Virus record (IMG/VR): IMGVR_UViG_2579779077_000004
DNA length: 9,892 nt
Source: a virus
Taxonomy: Duplodnaviria > Heunggongvirae > Uroviricota > Caudoviricetes
Reading direction: 5' to 3' (one strand)
Part shown: positions 2,667 to 7,922 of the stretch, one piece after another
How the letters are laid out: the number at the start of each line of letters is the position of its first letter
Position numbering within the stretch: the first letter of the stretch is position 1
The notes under the pieces: model-generated
Told to the model about the DNA's origin: nothing
Database searches by the model: none
The model's input: only the letters and a program-made list of their open reading frames with translations
Translations under genes and position numbers: made by a program

Positions 2667-2939
2667 ATGGCACATGACCGCATAGCGGAGGAACTCGAGG
2701 CAAAAGGCTTTTACCGGAGGGCGGCGGCGCGATGGGGTGAAGTCATGCAACTGGTGGAGACAGACAAGGAACGGCATCAGGTTACGATGCGACGGCTGGA
2801 ATGTTCCAGGAAGGCACAGAGGCCACCGGAGCCGCCGGATAACTTCGGAGACCTGAGAAAGGCAGTCGATCGCACTTATGCTGAAATGGGTATGGATGGT
2901 GTAAGCGATGAAATATGGCGTAATTACACAGACAGCTAA
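2667..2939 (+). CDS. PerC-family transcriptional regulator-like protein (90 aa)
   Basis: ATG at 2667 with GAGGGGG 6-12 nt upstream. The ORF-track start at 2547 would overlap ssb with no RBS. The N-terminal motif AEELEAKGFYRRAAARWGEVM matches my recollection of the PerC/Pch signature; this is a family-level call only. Confidence 0.55.
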   Translation: MAHDRIAEELEAKGFYRRAAARWGEVMQLVETDKERHQVTMRRLECSRKAQRPPEPPDNFGDLRKAVDRTYAEMGMDGVSDEIWRNYTDS

Positions 2940-2944
2940 TCAAC

Positions 2945-2966
2945 AGCCGGAGCAATCCGGCTTTTT
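2945..2966 (+). terminator. Rho-independent terminator after the PerC-like gene
   Basis: Stem AGCCGGA (2945-2951), GCAA tetraloop, TCCGGCT (2956-2962), followed by a T-run (2962-2966, then TTATTTTTT). Confidence 0.55.
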
Positions 2967-2986
2967 GTTATTTTTTGTAAATTATT

Positions 2987-3033
2987 TGTTCGTGGTTGTT
3001 CCACGTTGTTCACTGAGCGGATCGGCATATTTT
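2987..3033 (+). promoter_or_regulatory. Candidate promoter/operator for the head operon: three phased TTGTTC repeats and a sigma70-like -35/-10
   Basis: TTGTTC at 2987-2992, 2997-3002 and 3006-3011, spaced about one helical turn apart. The last one (-35-like) is followed after 16 nt by TATTTT at 3028-3033 (-10-like). A 5-bp inverted repeat CGTGG/CCACG lies at 2991-3005. Confidence 0.3.
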
Positions 3034-3087
3034 ACCCGAACTGAATCATGATTATTCTCGCCTGTGGTGCCAGGACGCTGGGGCCAC

Positions 3088-3135
3088 TTTCCCGCCTGTT
3101 AATGTGCTCGCCAATATTCATTACCAGGCGGGAAA
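3088..3135. promoter_or_regulatory. Perfect 11-bp inverted repeat in the capsid-gene leader (operator or RNA stem-loop)
   Basis: TTTCCCGCCTG (3088-3098) and CAGGCGGGAAA (3125-3135) are exact reverse complements separated by 26 nt. They are nested inside a 9-bp long-range inverted repeat, CCAGGACGC (3070-3078) and GCGTCCTGG (3187-3195). Confidence 0.35.
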
Positions 3136-3226
3136 ACGATCGGTGCGATTACTGATTTCCTTATGAAAAACGGTTGAGTGTTTGCCGCGTCCTGGAGTTC
3201 CTTACTTAACCCCAGGACTTTTTTTT

Positions 3227-4384
3227 ATGCCGAGAATAATCGAATTACGCCAGCAGAAAACCGCCATTAAAAATCAGATGCGCGACATGCTGGAGAACGC
3301 TGAAAAAGAAAACCGCAGTCTTAACGATGCTGAGGGCGCAAAATTTGACGAATTACGCGCTAAAGCTGAATCCCTCGATAAAGACATTTCCCGCCTTGAA
3401 GCCATTGCAGACGAAGAGCGCAGCAAGCCAGGTAAAAGCAGTCAGACCACTGACCCCGCAGAACTACGAAACTACATTCTGACGGGTGAAACCCGCGCAT
3501 TAAGTACAGGCGTTCCCGCTGATGGTGGTTATACCGTTATCCCCGAACTGAACACCGAAATCATGCGAATGCTGGCGGATGAATCCACCATGCGCCGCAT
3601 CTGTACCGTGAAGAAAATCAGCAGCAACGAGTTTAAGCAGCTTGTTTCCGCTGGCGGTGCGACCGTTAACCACGGTGAAGAGGGTAAGGCACGCGAACAG
3701 ACCAGCACCCCGCAGATTAACGAGGTGAGCATTAAGCTGTATCCGGTCTATGCGTACCCGCGCACCACACAGGAAATCGTGGATTTTTCCGATGTGGACA
3801 TCCTTTCATGGCTGACGGGTGAGATTGGCGACACCTTCACGGAAACCGAAGAAAGCGATCTGGTTGTGGGCGACGGTGACAAAAAAGCAAAAGGTTTTTT
3901 ATCCGTACCCCGTGCAGAGAAGAACGACAAAGAGCGTGATTTTGGTACGTTGCAGGTAATTAAACCTTCCGAATCTCTGGCGTGGACATCTGCGGACCCG
4001 CTGATCGACCTGAAATTTGCATTACGTAAAAAATACCGCAAAAACGCGGTCTGGGTGGTTAACTCCACGACGGCGGCAAAACTTCAGAAGGTGAAGAACG
4101 CGAACGGTGATTACATCTGGCGCGACCGTTTACAGGCGGGTGATCCTGATACGTTGCTGGGCCTTCCGGTCGAATATCTGGAGTTTATGCCTGATAACGT
4201 TATTGCCCTGGGTGACTTCAAACGCGGTTACTACATTGTTGATCACGAAACAGGTGTTCGCACCAGACCGGACAACCTCACAGAGCCGGGCTTCATCAAA
4301 ATTTTCACGCAGAAATATTTAGGCGGTGGCGTGGTGGATTCGAACGCGATCAAGATTCTGGAACTGCCACAGGACGACGATTAA
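3227..4384 (+). CDS. Major capsid protein, HK97 fold, with N-terminal coiled-coil delta (scaffolding) domain
   Basis: 385 aa from the ATG at 3227 (the ORF track begins at an upstream TTG at 3182). The N-terminus has a charged coiled-coil heptad pattern (IIELRQQKTAIKNQMRDMLENAEKENRSL…DELRAKAESLDKDISRLEAI), followed by a mature domain with HK97-MCP-like motifs (GGYTVIPEL…, …LLGLPVEY…). Confidence 0.9.
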   Translation: MPRIIELRQQKTAIKNQMRDMLENAEKENRSLNDAEGAKFDELRAKAESLDKDISRLEAIADEERSKPGKSSQTTDPAELRNYILTGETRALSTGVPADGGYTVIPELNTEIMRMLADESTMRRICTVKKISSNEFKQLVSAGGATVNHGEEGKAREQTSTPQINEVSIKLYPVYAYPRTTQEIVDFSDVDILSWLTGEIGDTFTETEESDLVVGDGDKKAKGFLSVPRAEKNDKERDFGTLQVIKPSESLAWTSADPLIDLKFALRKKYRKNAVWVVNSTTAAKLQKVKNANGDYIWRDRLQAGDPDTLLGLPVEYLEFMPDNVIALGDFKRGYYIVDHETGVRTRPDNLTEPGFIKIFTQKYLGGGVVDSNAIKILELPQDDD

Positions 4385-4394
4385 CAGCATACAG

Positions 4395-4423
4395 AAGGGG
4401 CTTAAAAGCCCCTTTAGTGTTTT
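4395..4423 (+). terminator. Hairpin with U-rich tail between capsid and protease genes (partial terminator or RNA stability element)
   Basis: Stem AAGGGGC (4395-4401), loop TTAAAA, stem GCCCCTT (4408-4414), then TAGTGTTTT. Confidence 0.4.
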
Positions 4424-7277: not shown

Positions 7278-7446
7278 GCGGGAACAAAACCGCCTTATCC
7301 GTGGACTTATAAGGCAGCGTGACACATGGAAGACACAGGAAACAGGGCATAAAGATAAAGCGTCAGGACGCGCAGAACGCATCACAGCGAAGCGATTAAC
7401 CGACCGTGACCGCGAGGTTATGGAATGTTTCCGCAATCGCTGGTGA
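7261..7446 (+). CDS. Possible small basic protein (about 61 aa)
   Basis: ATG at 7261 in the +1 frame relative to HNH, overlapping its last 17 nt (MTLMNEREQNRLIRGLIRQRD…NRW). RBS is weak and no family is recognised. It occupies the HNH-terS spacer. Confidence 0.22.
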   Translation: MTLMNEREQNRLIRGLIRQRDTWKTQETGHKDKASGRAERITAKRLTDRDREVMECFRNRW

Positions 7447-7565
7447 TGCTGTATGACGGGGTGGGGGGCGTTTTCAGGACAAACCCGACCCCGCCGGGCA
7501 CCGAACGCCTCCTCAAATTTTTATGCACGGGAATTTTTTGAAAAATAATCTGGCGAAAAATAAGC
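7447..7565. other. Candidate cos / packaging-initiation region upstream of terS
   Basis: Non-coding spacer with a GC-rich element (GACGGGGTGGGGGGCG at 7455-7470, then CCCGACCCCGCCGGG) followed by an AT-rich stretch (AAATTTTTATGCACGGGAATTTTTTGAAAAATAATC). The assignment rests on position only. Confidence 0.3.
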
Positions 7566-7922
7566 ATGGCAAGACCACCGAAAGCCCCCGCCTACCTGGA
7601 TGACATCGCCGTGAAGCAGTGGCGGGAAAAATCGCGGCAGCTTGCGGAACGGGGAGACCTGACTCCCGCCGACTGGAGCAATCTGGAACTGTATTGTGTC
7701 AACTACTCCATTTACCGGAAAGCCGTTGCAGACCTTGCGGCGCGCGGGTTCAGCATTGTTAACAGTCAGGGCGGCGAGAGCAGAAACCCCGCATTAAGCG
7801 CAAAATCCGACGCTGAAAGAGTGATGATAAAAATGGCCTCCTTGCTCGGTTTTGACCCGATAAGCCGCCGTAAAAATCCACCGGAAACAGAAGAAGAGGA
7901 CGAGCTTGACCGCCTGGAATAA
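7566..7922 (+). CDS. terS: Terminase small subunit, P27 family
   Basis: 118 aa with a P27-family-like pattern (…LTPADWSNLELYCVNYSIYRKA…NPALSA…MIKMASLLGFDPISRRK) and an acidic C-terminus. Lies between the HNH and TerL genes. Confidence 0.85.
   Translation: MARPPKAPAYLDDIAVKQWREKSRQLAERGDLTPADWSNLELYCVNYSIYRKAVADLAARGFSIVNSQGGESRNPALSAKSDAERVMIKMASLLGFDPISRRKNPPETEEEDELDRLE

Follow-up and report, generated by a model that had tools for sequence, protein, structure and literature searches.

A putative two-level control region with an attenuator-like leader RNA upstream of the capsid gene of a capsid-forming PICI

The spacer at 2940-3226 of the window (the whole stretch of 9,892 nucleotides analysed here) is the control region of a packaging operon that runs from capsid through terminase, and the window itself is a capsid-forming PICI, a phage satellite of the EcCIEDL933 type. 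We read this spacer as a two-level control region, i.e. a promoter with an RDF-type array followed by an attenuator-like RNA switch. We give this complete reading an even chance of being correct, and for the leader RNA the attenuator-like switch is the most likely interpretation. The reading is built on repeats, conservation, covariation and predicted folds, and the control element is undescribed in the databases and literature searched.

The gene order is integrase, AlpA, RepA helicase, SSB and PerC, then capsid, protease, portal, connectors, HNH, TerS and TerL, and the island sits between roxA and phoQ (gene order from the PGAP annotation of an identical island). By profile match AlpA, a protein of 62 aa, belongs to PF05930 (E = 5e-18) and PerC to PF06069. 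The packaging operon covers ~7 kb and the capsid gene is its first gene. The literature searched on capsid-forming PICIs gives no account of how this operon gets switched on; it does report that their tail-less capsids form without any helper phage and that reproduction of EcCIEDL933 is driven by AlpA overexpression (bioRxiv 10.1101/2025.02.11.637232). The leader of type A was found in 361 of 5426 complete E. coli genomes, O157:H7 among these, and relatives of it in Shigella, Citrobacter, Erwinia and Rosenbergiella.

Table 1. Coordinates of the features in and next to the spacer (window positions).
Feature	Position	Strand	Remarks
Intrinsic terminator of accessory cassette (here PerC)	2945-2970	+	stem at 2945-2962, 7 bp, 5 G-C
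Conserved box TTTTGTAAATTAT	2973-2985	+	leftmost conserved element of the packaging module; first TTGT unit inside
Four direct repeats, one helical turn apart	2975-3011	+	TTGTAA 2975; TTGTTC 2986, 2996, 3006
Predicted -35, TTTACC	3031-3036	+	TTTACN at fixed position in 12/17 diverse leaders
Predicted -10, TATTCT	3053-3058	+	16 nt 3' of -35; 5 nt 5' of HP1
HP1, hairpin at predicted transcript 5' end	3064-3087	+	RNA folds; -16.8 kcal/mol in isolation
5' arm of alternative helix, CCAGGACGC	3070-3078	+	copy of the Shine-Dalgarno arm of HP3; CCAGGAC again at 3212-3218
HP2, long hairpin abutting HP1	3088-3135	+	-22.6 kcal/mol; 11-bp inverted repeat is its core
Middle segment, small hairpin and A-rich stretch	3136-3186	+	poorly conserved; type A only
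3' arm of alternative helix, GCGTCCTGG	3187-3195	+	overlaps HP3 5' arm; invariant in type A
HP3, terminator-like, hides the RBS	3189-3218	+	3189-3199 with 3208-3218; -14.1 kcal/mol
Shine-Dalgarno-like AGGA, the only one	3214-3217	+	9 nt 5' of ATG, in HP3 3' arm
U8 tract	3219-3226	+	between HP3 and the ATG at 3227, abutting both
Major capsid gene, HK97 fold family, 385 aa	3227-4384	+	PGAP annotation of identical island, ORF list, homologues

Two perfect inverted repeats dominate the spacer. The first, TTTCCCGCCTG (3088-3098) with CAGGCGGGAAA (3125-3135), has a 26-nt spacer and extends to 17 nt with 94% complementarity (3088-3104 with 3119-3135); the second joins CCAGGACGC (3070-3078) to GCGTCCTGG (3187-3195), also perfectly complementary. 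Both pairs, as well as the three TTGTTC repeats and the terminator listed in the earlier note, are present where it had placed them. Its statement that such a density of symmetry is unlikely by chance also holds: dinucleotide-preserving shuffles of 2940-3226 contain on average 0.12 perfect inverted repeats of 9 nt or longer, two or more of them are seen in only 0.85% of the shuffles (P = 0.0085), and the probability of any of at least 11 nt is 0.0075. The slightly larger interval 2900-3260 holds four (11, 11, 10 and 9 nt), which is matched by 0 of 1000 shuffles. The two additional repeats extend into the capsid coding sequence. One of them, 3050-3060 with 3231-3241, closes one predicted leader fold; its 5' arm is the -10 region, 5' of the predicted transcription start, and each of 3052 T>G, 3231 C>A and the sequence of L060, a diverged type-A variant, breaks the helix without compensation. 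We judge it a chance or non-functional pairing. The other, 2916-2925 with 3243-3252, has an unconserved 5' arm within the variable PerC gene and was likewise set aside.

The spacer opens with an intrinsic terminator, whose stem AGCCGGAGCAATCCGGCT is followed by TTTTTGTTATT; directly 3' of the stem (2945-2962) lies TTTTTGTT. The terminator stands 5' of the conserved box in leader types A and C, type B has an equivalent hairpin between the box and the -10, and in O157 the terminator is duplicated on both sides of an inserted cassette. It would shield the packaging operon from transcription of the variable accessory cassette upstream. The sequence 5' of the box is unrelated from island to island. 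PerC is missing 5' of many identical leaders, it is a pseudogene with an internal stop in one O157 island, and in one island a ProQ/FinO-family gene lies directly 5' of the leader. PerC was therefore rejected as an activator, and the regulatory role once suggested for this PerC-like protein gives way to that of an accessory gene, absent or inactivated beside leaders that are kept. The box, for its part, starts 89-91 nt 5' of HP1 in all 52 unique leaders compared (52/52) and is kept in low-GC relatives too. A scan of viral contigs with the box pattern returned mostly chance AT-rich matches, which made filtering necessary.

Downstream of the box, TTTACC-16 nt-TATTCT is predicted, from its conservation, to be a weak sigma-70 promoter with a transcription start at about 3064. 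The exceptions to TTTACN among the 17 diverse leaders are five type-B-like leaders; TAnnnT is found in the same register in nearly all 17, and throughout this set the hexamers stay 16 nt apart and HP1 follows after a constant 5 nt. The 27 type-A variants show no change in either hexamer while 3012-3022 and 3039-3040 vary, and the low-GC relatives keep the promoter together with the box. A consensus scan passed over this promoter, which matches at 8 of 12 positions. A different promoter had been proposed, with TTGTTC as its -35, and it is not the conserved one: TTGTTC-N16-TATTTT is kept in type A only, its TATTTT overlaps the conserved -35, and type C has the repeats with no -10 at that distance.

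The TTGTTC repeats are better read as a putative upstream array of regulator binding sites. Their phasing is as first described (2986, 2996 and 3006, spacing 10 + 10 nt), and a fourth phased unit absent from the earlier note, TTGTAA at 2975 inside the box, brings the unit spacing to 11, 10 and 10 nt. Relative to the predicted start the array spans about -89 to -54. The pattern TTGT-N6-TTGT-N6-TTGT has 9 matches in the island locus L001 against 0.10 expected, a number reached by 0 of 100 shuffles, and all 9 fall within the island. At the left end copies lie 5' of int, in a putative attL arm, and at the right end in a putative attR arm; others occupy the int-alpA spacer, the stretch before the capsid gene and a site 3' of the last gene, and arrays of up to 5 units exist elsewhere in the island. 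Arrays at three of these places (the right end, the region 5' of int and the one before the capsid gene) are shared by three islands that have integrated at different sites. Next to each of the L001 arrays at 3317-3350 and 19481-19504 lie two copies of GGTGTAGTTAAT, the layout is the same in L197, and the arrays of L198 adjoin another repeat, GTGTGGTCAGTT; from the position of these repeats we infer that they are integrase arm-type sites and that the flanks are att arms. The int-alpA copy of the O157 array is identical to the capsid copy at 23 of 24 positions. The int-alpA spacer of L198 has no array, and no clear TTGT arrays were seen in a search of islands of types B and D.

Operators of RDF proteins are described as direct repeats that follow one another at about one helical turn, both at att sites and at promoters (PMC7498355). 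The island shows this pattern, with three or more such repeats in the array and the same repeats at the putative attachment arms. Because the same array recurs at both island ends and in the int-alpA spacer, an RDF-type pattern, AlpA is a candidate binder: our best guess is that the array is bound by an RDF-type protein of the island, most likely AlpA. Both excision and induction need this protein, which also activates its own promoter (PMC6092414; PMC11773190). For EcCICFT073, Pint is not controlled by AlpA (PMC6092414), and no AlpA binding site is reported in the literature searched (PMC6092414, PMC11773190). The P. aeruginosa AlpA antiterminator was considered as a model and rejected: it has eight helices, contacts DNA through residues 128-142 and binds GGGACG between -35 and -10, and the PICI AlpA has only 62 aa. 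The possibility that the TTGTTC repeats are the replication origin of the PICI was rejected as well, since another iteron, AAAAGTGAGG, present in at least 6 copies at 1481-1692, adjoins the replication gene, directly 3' of the RepA helicase.

From about 3064 the 163-nt leader is predicted to fold into three hairpins, HP1, HP2 and HP3, a fold common to 28 diverse leaders. The folding energy of 3064-3229 is -65.7 kcal/mol (z = -5.37; another leader fold has z = -4.95). HP1, a 24-nt hairpin which the earlier note had not described, pairs 3064-3068 with 3083-3087 and 3070-3073 with 3078-3081 around the loop GACG (3074-3077); the 5' arm of the 9-bp repeat falls within it. It exists in three types, with compensatory changes (CCAG/CUGG, CUCA/UGAG and CUCC/GGAG) and an invariant GACG loop. 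In all non-A leaders the sequence of HP1 is invariant across genera, while HP2 drifts freely. A covariance model made from the non-A leaders matches 3064-3165 of the window (E = 1e-5).

HP2 shows the opposite kind of conservation: at least 9 different stem sequences occupy the same position. Both sides have changed in 6 of 7 aligned pairs, and the covariation score is 0.228 compared with 0.110 in shuffles, none of which reaches it (0/500), slid controls being far lower. Within type A the variation in HP2 is concentrated in the loop, at 3105-3118. The segment that follows is replaced in non-A leaders by a short C-rich linker. In low-GC relatives the leader is short and unstructured, and to judge from these sequences it appears to be dispensable there. 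An Rfam covariance-model scan of the window and of three other leader types gave no leader match at E up to 1, and a literature search with exact leader sequence strings found no paper; one for RNA-seq brought nothing of use either. We found no conserved upstream ORF; a 4-codon ORF at 3163-3177 is lacking in L060 and in the non-A leaders.

HP3, the third hairpin, was also absent from the earlier note. Its arm GTCCTGGAGTT pairs with AACCCCAGGAC, and a hairpin is found at this position in all non-A leaders. There the 3' arm carries GGA or GAG at the same 9-nt distance, such that the Shine-Dalgarno-like motif is always buried, as in RBS-sequestering leaders; in the window leader P(HP3) = 0.99996. 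The T tract that follows counts 7 or 8 T in every type-A variant (8 in L060), and it is missing in non-A leaders. HP3 and U8 together form what is expected of an attenuator, a G+C-rich hairpin then a U tract 5' of a gene. The consensus terminator scan missed HP3 on account of one internal mismatch and of the loop rule of the scan. A second conserved terminator-like hairpin lies 3' of the capsid gene, at 4394-4415.

The 9-bp repeat that had been described as enclosing the 11-bp one is present, but it is an alternative pairing of HP1 with the 5' arm of HP3. This duplex of 9 bp has an energy of -19.8 kcal/mol, and it is the counterpart of the antiterminator pairing of an attenuator. The complementarity is kept in three leader types among 71 unique leaders, each with its own complement. 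At pair 15-122 a U-A is changed to G-C in L254 and L274, one compensatory pair, and the change falls on a base that is unpaired within HP3. Overall 97% of the cells of the alternative helix are paired, compared with less than 60% when the partner is slid; this support comes from three lineages and, within the non-A leaders, from a single event in two related sequences. In L060 the long-range helix is the minimum-energy fold, with a probability of 0.97. In the leader of the window itself the three-hairpin fold is ahead by ~12 kcal/mol and the equilibrium probability of the long-range helix is ~4e-7, and with such a gap a factor or a kinetic route, neither of which turned up, is needed for switching. 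An ORF check and an Rfam scan of the leaders found no sensor (leader peptide or aptamer).

In the mechanism that we propose, AlpA, the known master inducer, would bind the array and turn the promoter on. In the default fold HP3 would stop transcription or block translation just before the capsid gene; we consider this default to be OFF because HP3 has the look of an intrinsic terminator and the single Shine-Dalgarno-like AGGA is hidden in it. The copy of the Shine-Dalgarno arm present in HP1 could then pair with the 5' arm of HP3 and open this hairpin, 3187-3195 acting, in the modelled folds, as anti-Shine-Dalgarno and terminator strand. The topology would be the 1:2 / 2:3 / 3:4 one of classic attenuators, and HP2, lying between segments 2 and 3, would be a clamp. 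Termination at U8 would be general for type A only, since the non-A leaders have no U tract after HP3. Of the tight control of head-gene expression put forward earlier, the idea of a control is retained but not that of a very tight OFF state, given the spontaneous tail-less capsids.

Capsid-forming PICIs are recently recognised, widespread satellites that make their own capsids and borrow phage tails only. Through an array common to the island ends and to the promoter, capsid production would be linked directly to the master inducer AlpA. Should the switch exist, it could account for a production of tail-less capsids that is spontaneous yet restrained, and the leader would be an RNA family missing from Rfam 15.

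Among the other explanations the one that survives best, although we hold it to be unlikely, is a passive architecture with no switch. HP1 and HP2 would protect a highly expressed capsid mRNA from 5'-end-dependent decay, HP3-U8 would be a leaky insulator or dosage terminator, and the HP1-HP3 complementarity would be a by-product of the CCAGGAC duplication. Hairpins that stabilise 5' ends, e.g. that of ompA, require a position at the transcript 5' end, and HP1 begins exactly at the predicted +1 in all leaders, 5 nt from the -10. The dominance of the three-hairpin fold in the ensemble (the P(HP3) given above) and the spontaneous production of capsids also agree with this explanation, and the conserved hairpin 3' of the capsid gene suggests a dosage control through partial termination. 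However, the HP1/HP3 complementarity is kept in three different types, including a compensatory change; the invariance of HP1 across genera, next to an HP2 that drifts, exceeds the needs of a generic stabiliser; and a Shine-Dalgarno-like motif is buried in every leader type.

Somewhat less probable again is a leader that works as a riboregulator, with HP1 recognised and opened by a specific trans factor, so that the capsid start becomes accessible, and with AlpA bound to the phased repeats of both the island ends and this promoter, coupling excision and capsid production. The trans factor could be an RNA-binding protein of the island or the host, the capsid or scaffold protein in a feedback, or RNA polymerase in a put-like manner. 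If this riboregulator reading is true, one protein couples excision and capsid production, and one RNA checks both.

At the DNA level, the HP1 palindrome and its inverted copy ~120 bp downstream could be operators for a dimeric, possibly looping repressor of the island, which we regard as improbable. As an imperfect palindrome that covers +1 to +24, HP1 lies where operators typically do; its sequence does not vary among any of the non-A leaders, and each type has the inverted downstream copy. But among the type-A variants 3087 C>T in HP1, 3091 C>T, and 3210 C>T and 3212 C>T in HP3 keep the RNA pairing as G-U or U-G while breaking the DNA palindrome (3211 C>T in HP3 gives an A-U pair). The internal loops of HP1 are asymmetric, and the pairing of HP2 and HP3 is kept with unrelated sequences. 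The + strand folds ~10 kcal/mol better than the opposite one, for which we obtained -55.2 kcal/mol and z = -3.9. Moreover, Gram-negative PICIs have no known repressor candidate (PMC6092414). The earlier note had offered a dimeric-regulator site and an RNA structure in the 5'UTR as two options for the inverted repeats: the first is disfavoured by stems that vary freely and tolerate G-U pairs, and the second gains from the HP2 covariation (6/7 pairs), the variants that preserve G-U pairs and the advantage of the + strand.

No more probable than the operators is an antitermination of the put type, in which HP1 and HP2 would bind RNA polymerase and allow read-through of HP3-U8, of the post-capsid hairpin and of the 7-kb operon. 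The two adjacent stems, ~72 nt at the transcript start, are like those of HK022 putL (PMC9378689), terminator-like hairpins lie downstream (3189-3226 and 4394-4415), and the invariance of HP1 is what a surface contacting RNA polymerase would show. Against it, the covariance model R1 has no match at the HK022 put sites (its best hit elsewhere has E = 1.8), the stems of HP2 vary freely whereas both put stems have specific bulges, the conserved HP1-HP3 pairing is left unexplained, and non-A leaders have no terminator in the leader.

The leader could also be mainly a small-RNA gene of ~163 nt that ends at U8 and acts in trans on targets of the host, the helper or the island, a very unlikely explanation in our opinion. 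The predicted promoter of its own, the stable hairpin predicted at the 5' end and the predicted Rho-independent termination signal with its long run of U are features typical of Hfq-dependent small RNAs, and a ProQ/FinO-family gene lies directly upstream in one island. The terminator, however, is present in type A only, the distance that ties HP1 and HP3 to the capsid start is constant in every type, and the RNA has no known target.

The layout of lambda pR'-tR' is promoter, leader, terminator. In spite of the resemblance of the spacer to it, a target for a late activator or antiterminator of the helper phage (Q- or Ogr/Delta-like), which the earlier note had listed, is highly improbable: such an activator cannot be required because the published tail-less capsids arise without helper phage, and AlpA overexpression drives EcCIEDL933 (bioRxiv 10.1101/2025.02.11.637232); the P2 Ogr/P4 Delta dyad TGT-N12-ACA (near -55) has no match in 2940-3226 and two matches elsewhere in the window, which is chance level; the leader gave no match when compared by sensitive BLAST with 50,697 phage genomes; and by eye HP1 has no obvious -10-like pause element.

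Compared with known systems, the spacer shares with the lambda pR'/6S RNA/tR' region the order of its parts: a promoter, then ~160-190 nt of leader closed by an intrinsic terminator, then the head genes. It differs from control by lambda Q in that the island has no annotated Q gene, inspection by eye revealed neither Q-binding nor pause elements, and cf-PICI capsid production needs no helper phage. With the HK022 put RNAs, too, the transcript begins with two abutting stem-loops (~70 nt) and terminators follow further on; here HP1 + HP2 cover 3064-3135, i.e. 72 nt with 0-3 nt between the stems. HK022 putL and putR, read from the HK022 genome, show no similarity to them by eye or with the covariance model R1, and, in contrast to put, the HP2 stem is variable and the leader has an extra conserved pairing to the RBS hairpin.

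The closest likeness of the RNA part is with classic attenuators (trp, pyrBI) and RBS-sequestering leaders, which also have a promoter, a structured leader and a hairpin with a U tract before the first gene. The mutually exclusive pairings, 1:2 + 3:4 versus 2:3, are those of the attenuators, and the Shine-Dalgarno motif in the 3' arm of the last hairpin is that of the RBS-sequestering switches. Unlike in classic attenuators, the present leader has no leader peptide, known aptamer or RNA-binding-protein motif, its segment 1 is at the extreme 5' end of the transcript, the variable-sequence HP2 is inserted between segments 2 and 3, and the U tract exists in one leader type only.

The DNA part resembles the sites of RDF regulators such as 186 Apl, P2 Cox (which activates the P4 PLL promoter) and P4 Vis (an AlpA homologue), small winged-helix excision proteins with direct repeats ~10-11 bp apart at the ends of the element and beside a promoter (PMC7498355). 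The repeat unit, TTGTTC(N4), is undescribed in the literature searched. Most Apl and Cox sites overlap the promoter and repress it, whereas the present array lies at about -89 to -54, and this upstream position implies activation. As for these regulators, a morphogenesis promoter of the satellite would be under the putative control of the protein that directs excision.

The window is identical to the 15.6-kb island lying between roxA and phoQ in E. coli 07-4299. Its early genes are, in order, those of an integrase, a 62-aa AlpA (PF05930), small proteins, a RepA-type helicase, SSB and PerC (PF06069); the packaging genes encode an HK97-type capsid, protease, portal, head closure protein, connector, HNH endonuclease, P27-family TerS and TerL. 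Capsid-forming PICIs (cf-PICIs), whose prototype is EcCIEDL933 (bioRxiv 10.1101/2022.09.08.507074), have the same gene set, and by this content the window is a cf-PICI of that type. Directly 3' of the helicase gene, the iteron AAAAGTGAGG occurs at least six times within 1481-1692, in either orientation, and one pair of copies (1537-1547 with 1566-1576) forms a perfect 11-nt inverted repeat; the region is probably the replication origin of the island. A candidate cos site of the HNH/TerS/TerL packaging system is the 120-bp gap before the TerS gene (7446-7566), which opens very G+C-rich (GACGGGGTGGGGGGCG ... CCCGACCCCGCCGGGC) and becomes A+T-rich further on.

The leader of the window, called type A, occurs in 361 of 5426 complete E. 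coli genomes at 95–100% identity, always with the capsid gene downstream, and is the same in the O157 island at the same chromosomal site. In that island (locus L195, 650-1020) PerC and the conserved box are separated by an inserted 74-aa gene with a copy of the terminator AGCCGGAG(A/C)AATCCGGCT on either side. This terminator seems to travel with accessory cassettes; PerC has an internal stop there. Relatives gathered through capsid homologues and pattern scans come from Shigella, Rosenbergiella, Citrobacter, Erwinia, Gilliamella and many viral contigs. An HP1-like hairpin is present in 71 unique leaders, which fall into type A (the window and L060, a 74%-identical variant) and several non-A types. 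Upstream of the box the islands are unrelated in sequence (PerC, another small gene or opposite-strand genes), in agreement with the published variable region ahead of the cf-PICI packaging module. In one cf-PICI (L073 6178-6720) this region carries, upstream of the box, a gene for a ProQ/FinO-family RNA-binding protein; some 280 bp, which include one small gene, separate it from the box. Among a further set of relatives (L227, L228, L230, L233, L234, L236, L239, L240; L232, L237, L238; L244, L246, L249, L273, L277), low-GC ones keep the box and the promoter with a leader of only ~35 nt that has no hairpins; in others, Gilliamella among them, the leader is long and carries unrelated hairpins. 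Thus the leader is a fast-evolving, exchangeable module.

All the repeats that the earlier note listed between PerC and the capsid gene are present where it placed them, and their density, which it thought unlikely by chance, does exceed chance: dinucleotide-preserving shuffles of 2940-3226 contain on average 0.12 perfect inverted repeats of at least 9 nt, against two here (11 and 9 nt; P of two or more = 0.0085). Extending the region by 40 nt on either side raises the number to four, which 0 of 1000 shuffles reached. It had not listed HP1, HP3 (followed by T8 and directly by the ATG) or a fourth phased repeat, within the box.

Coordinates and motifs of the features (window positions, or L001 positions for the whole-island locus, window = L001 minus 9101)
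Feature	Position	Motif	Remark
Studied spacer	PerC to capsid gene		capsid ATG at 3227
Conserved box	2973-2985	TTTTGTAAATTAT	
Phased repeats	2975; 2986, 2996, 3006	TTGTAA; TTGTTC (three)	one helical turn apart, ~-89 to -54
Predicted -35	3031-3036	TTTACC	conserved register across diverse leaders
Predicted -10	3053-3058	TATTCT	conserved register across diverse leaders
HP1, window	3064-3087	GUGGU-G-CCAG-GACG-CUGG-G-GCCAC	
HP1, non-A leaders		GUGGC-A-CUCA-GACG-UGAG-CC-GCCAC	invariant across genera
HP1, L254 and L274		GUGAC-A-CUCC-GACG-GGAG-CC-GUCAC	
HP2	3088-3135		
HP3	3189-3199 with 3208-3218		
Shine-Dalgarno-like motif	3214-3217	AGGA	GGA or GAG in other leaders
Alternative helix, 5' arm	3070-3078		5' strand and loop of HP1
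Alternative helix, 3' arm	3187-3195		5' arm of HP3
HP1 segment and HP3 5'-arm complement		CCAGGACGC; GCGUCCUGG	
HP1 segment and HP3 5'-arm complement		AGACGUGA; UCACGUCU	
HP1 segment and HP3 5'-arm complement		GACGGGA; UCCCGUC	
Hairpin between capsid and protease genes	4394-4415	GAAGGGGCTTAAAAGCCCCTTT	9-bp, G+C-rich, terminator-like
Array cluster 1	L001 3317-3350		upstream of int, beside two copies of GGTGTAGTTAAT
Array cluster 2	L001 4684-4737		int-alpA spacer, five consecutive units
Array cluster 3	capsid promoter		
Array cluster 4	L001 19092-19115		just after last gene; related phased GTGAC array
Array cluster 5	L001 19481-19504		right end, beside two copies of GGTGTAGTTAAT

Folding and covariation, which the earlier note had proposed as checks, both support an RNA structure. 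Folding of the predicted transcript 3064-3229 gives -65.7 kcal/mol (z = -5.37), versus -55.2 for the reverse strand, and three hairpins constitute the minimum-energy fold in 27 of 28 diverse leaders, the exception being L060. Between HP1 types the loop is constant and the stem differences are compensatory pairs. HP2, i.e. the 11-bp repeat, lies 0–3 nt 3' of HP1, and at least nine stem sequences unrelated to one another were seen for it; of seven aligned pairs, six are changed on both sides, giving a covariation score of 0.228 versus 0.110 in shuffles (0/500), with slid controls far lower. HP3 ends 5–8 nt ahead of the AUG in all types, and the sole Shine-Dalgarno-like motif is always within its 3' arm, 9 nt from the AUG. 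The type-A polymorphisms 3087 C>T, 3091 C>T, 3210 C>T and 3212 C>T produce G-U pairs and 3211 C>T turns an A-C mismatch into an A-U pair; these changes are of the RNA kind. A covariance model built from non-A leaders only matches window 3064-3165 (E = 1e-5) with HP1 and HP2 correctly aligned, and an Rfam scan of the leaders matched no family. The region is very probably a promoter followed by a cis-acting structured leader.

Type-A leaders contain a four-codon ORF, ATGAAAAACGGTTGA (3163-3177; missing in L060), whose start resembles ATGAAAAAA, the start of non-A capsid genes. Its ATG was placed on the capsid ATG by the covariance model, and folding predicts its A-run to be paired with the U8 tract; the ORF may be what is left of an older start of the capsid gene. 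They also hold four CCWGG sites (3070, 3125, 3191, 3212; ~0.6 expected), all in hairpin arms, which non-A leaders are without; CCWGG is the target of Dcm methylation and of EcoRII. CGAGAATAATCGAATTACGCCA, the first 22 nt after the capsid start (3231-3252), has an upstream reverse-complement copy that is split in two, with 124 nt between a piece at the end of PerC (2916-2925) and a piece over the -10 region (3050-3060). Variants break both pairings without compensation, so this split copy is probably due to chance or a relic of rearrangement.

To position the promoter, 17 diverse leaders (<88% identical) were anchored on HP1. Type-B-like leaders excepted, TTTACN occupies a fixed place, followed by exactly 16 variable nt, TAnnnT, 5 nt and HP1, which predicts a transcription start at ~3064. 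Both hexamers are invariant in 27 type-A variants, where 3012-3022, 3039-3040, 3052 and 3063 vary. A consensus scan missed this promoter (8/12 positions matched, threshold 9), and such weakness fits activator dependence. The box starts 89–91 nt ahead of HP1 in 52/52 unique leaders examined.

The phased repeats are not confined to the promoter. TTGT-N6-TTGT-N6-TTGT, with at most one mismatch, has nine matches across the island versus 0.10 expected (0/100 shuffles reach nine); they form five clusters, none in the flanking chromosome. The GGTGTAGTTAAT pairs at the island ends are likely integrase arm sites. A further island, inserted in tqsA, has clusters at the same places, minus the one that follows the last gene. 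In a type-C island, located between rcnR and thiM, arrays precede both int and the capsid gene and recur at the right end; the repeat adjoining them is a different one (GTGTGGTCAGTT), and the AlpA of this island shows only 67% identity. In O157 the int-alpA and capsid copies agree at 23/24 positions. RDFs such as 186 Apl and P2 Cox bind direct repeats 10–11 bp apart at att sites and promoters (PMC7498355). AlpA, an RDF-class protein homologous to P4 Vis, is needed for PICI excision and induction and activates its own promoter (PMC6092414; PMC11773190). From the recurring arrays, this binding pattern and the class of AlpA we infer that AlpA binds the array and activates the capsid promoter; as the array-binding protein it stays putative, with chances slightly short of even. 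This is weakened by three observations: no array was found in the int-alpA spacer of the rcnR-thiM island, clear TTGT arrays were not seen in type B and D islands, and type B keeps the box with the repeats replaced by a terminator hairpin. Ahead of alpA in another cf-PICI (L074 1500-1543, = L198 7783-7826) lies a hairpin, CGTCCTCG...CGAGGACG, with GAGGA in its 3' arm, then T8 and the ATG of alpA, an arrangement identical in design to the HP3-U8-ATG of the capsid gene. An attenuator there may be relevant to alpA induction by helper phages.

The 9-bp repeat said to enclose the others has real arms, but these belong to HP1 and HP3, so that the helix they form is in competition with the two hairpins. 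The Shine-Dalgarno arm has a copy within HP1, since CCAGGAC is present at 3070 as well as at 3212. Every HP1 type is matched by its own complement in the HP3 5' arm. In the third type a U-to-G change in HP1 is met by A-to-C at a position that HP3 itself leaves unpaired as a bulge (U-A in 20 sequences, G-C in 2), and 97% of cells are paired in the HP1-HP3 alternative versus <60% when slid. Such compensated changes, from three lineages with one event within the non-A group, would be expected of a functional alternative helix. In the window the three-hairpin fold (-68.3 kcal/mol) dominates the long-range one (-56.6; P ~4e-7). In L060, where the outer stem of HP1 has decayed, the long-range helix is the minimum-energy fold (P = 0.97). 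Both states are thus reachable in evolution, and according to the folding model a factor or a kinetic route is needed for the open state of the window.

With U7 or U8 behind it, the type-A HP3 (-14.1 kcal/mol) has the shape of an intrinsic terminator; non-A leaders have no U tract at this place. The feature common to all types is therefore burial of the ribosome-binding site, termination being a predicted type-A-specific addition. A second conserved G+C-rich hairpin stands 3' of the capsid gene in all types; every relative checked, Gilliamella among them, has one there, of differing sequence. Its probable role is to fix how much capsid is made relative to the downstream proteins, or to stabilise capsid mRNA. 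Transcription of the operon would thus meet terminator-like signals repeatedly. In the model we consider most likely, AlpA or another island protein on the phased array would activate the weak promoter at a fixed distance. The nascent leader would fold into HP1, HP2 and HP3, blocking the capsid start and, in type A, also terminating transcription. The HP1 copy would then pair with the HP3 5' arm and open the start, with HP2 as a clamp joining the partners. We give this combined model an even chance, and the switch part, taken separately, roughly the same.

A leader acting as a passive 5' stabiliser and leaky insulator would agree with the dominance of one fold and with the reported spontaneous capsid production (bioRxiv 10.1101/2025.02.11.637232). 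It leaves the conserved HP1-HP3 pairing unexplained, and we consider it unlikely. Much less probable is a DNA operator, the dimeric-regulator site of the earlier note, against which speak the G-U substitutions and the freely varying stems; equally so a put-like antitermination RNA, which has the two-stem layout at the 5' end in common with the leader but no detected homology to put. A trans-acting small RNA, conceivable for type A only, is slightly more doubtful still. A target for a helper-phage late activator, also suggested initially, is highly improbable: such an activator is not required for capsid production (bioRxiv 10.1101/2025.02.11.637232), and neither an Ogr/Delta site nor a phage homologue of the leader was found. 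PerC, whose product the earlier note would have included in its reporter test, was rejected as controller of the capsid operon, being a dispensable accessory gene.

This RNA family and the link between island-end arrays and the capsid promoter are absent from Rfam and the literature searched, and the leader would gain in interest if a specific trigger of the switch were found. Its components are of known kinds, an attenuator-like leader and RDF-type operator arrays doubling as promoter controls. The leader has the topology of classic attenuators, with no known sensor; as with the sites of 186 Apl and P2 Cox, the repeats lie one turn apart, at both island ends and at a promoter.
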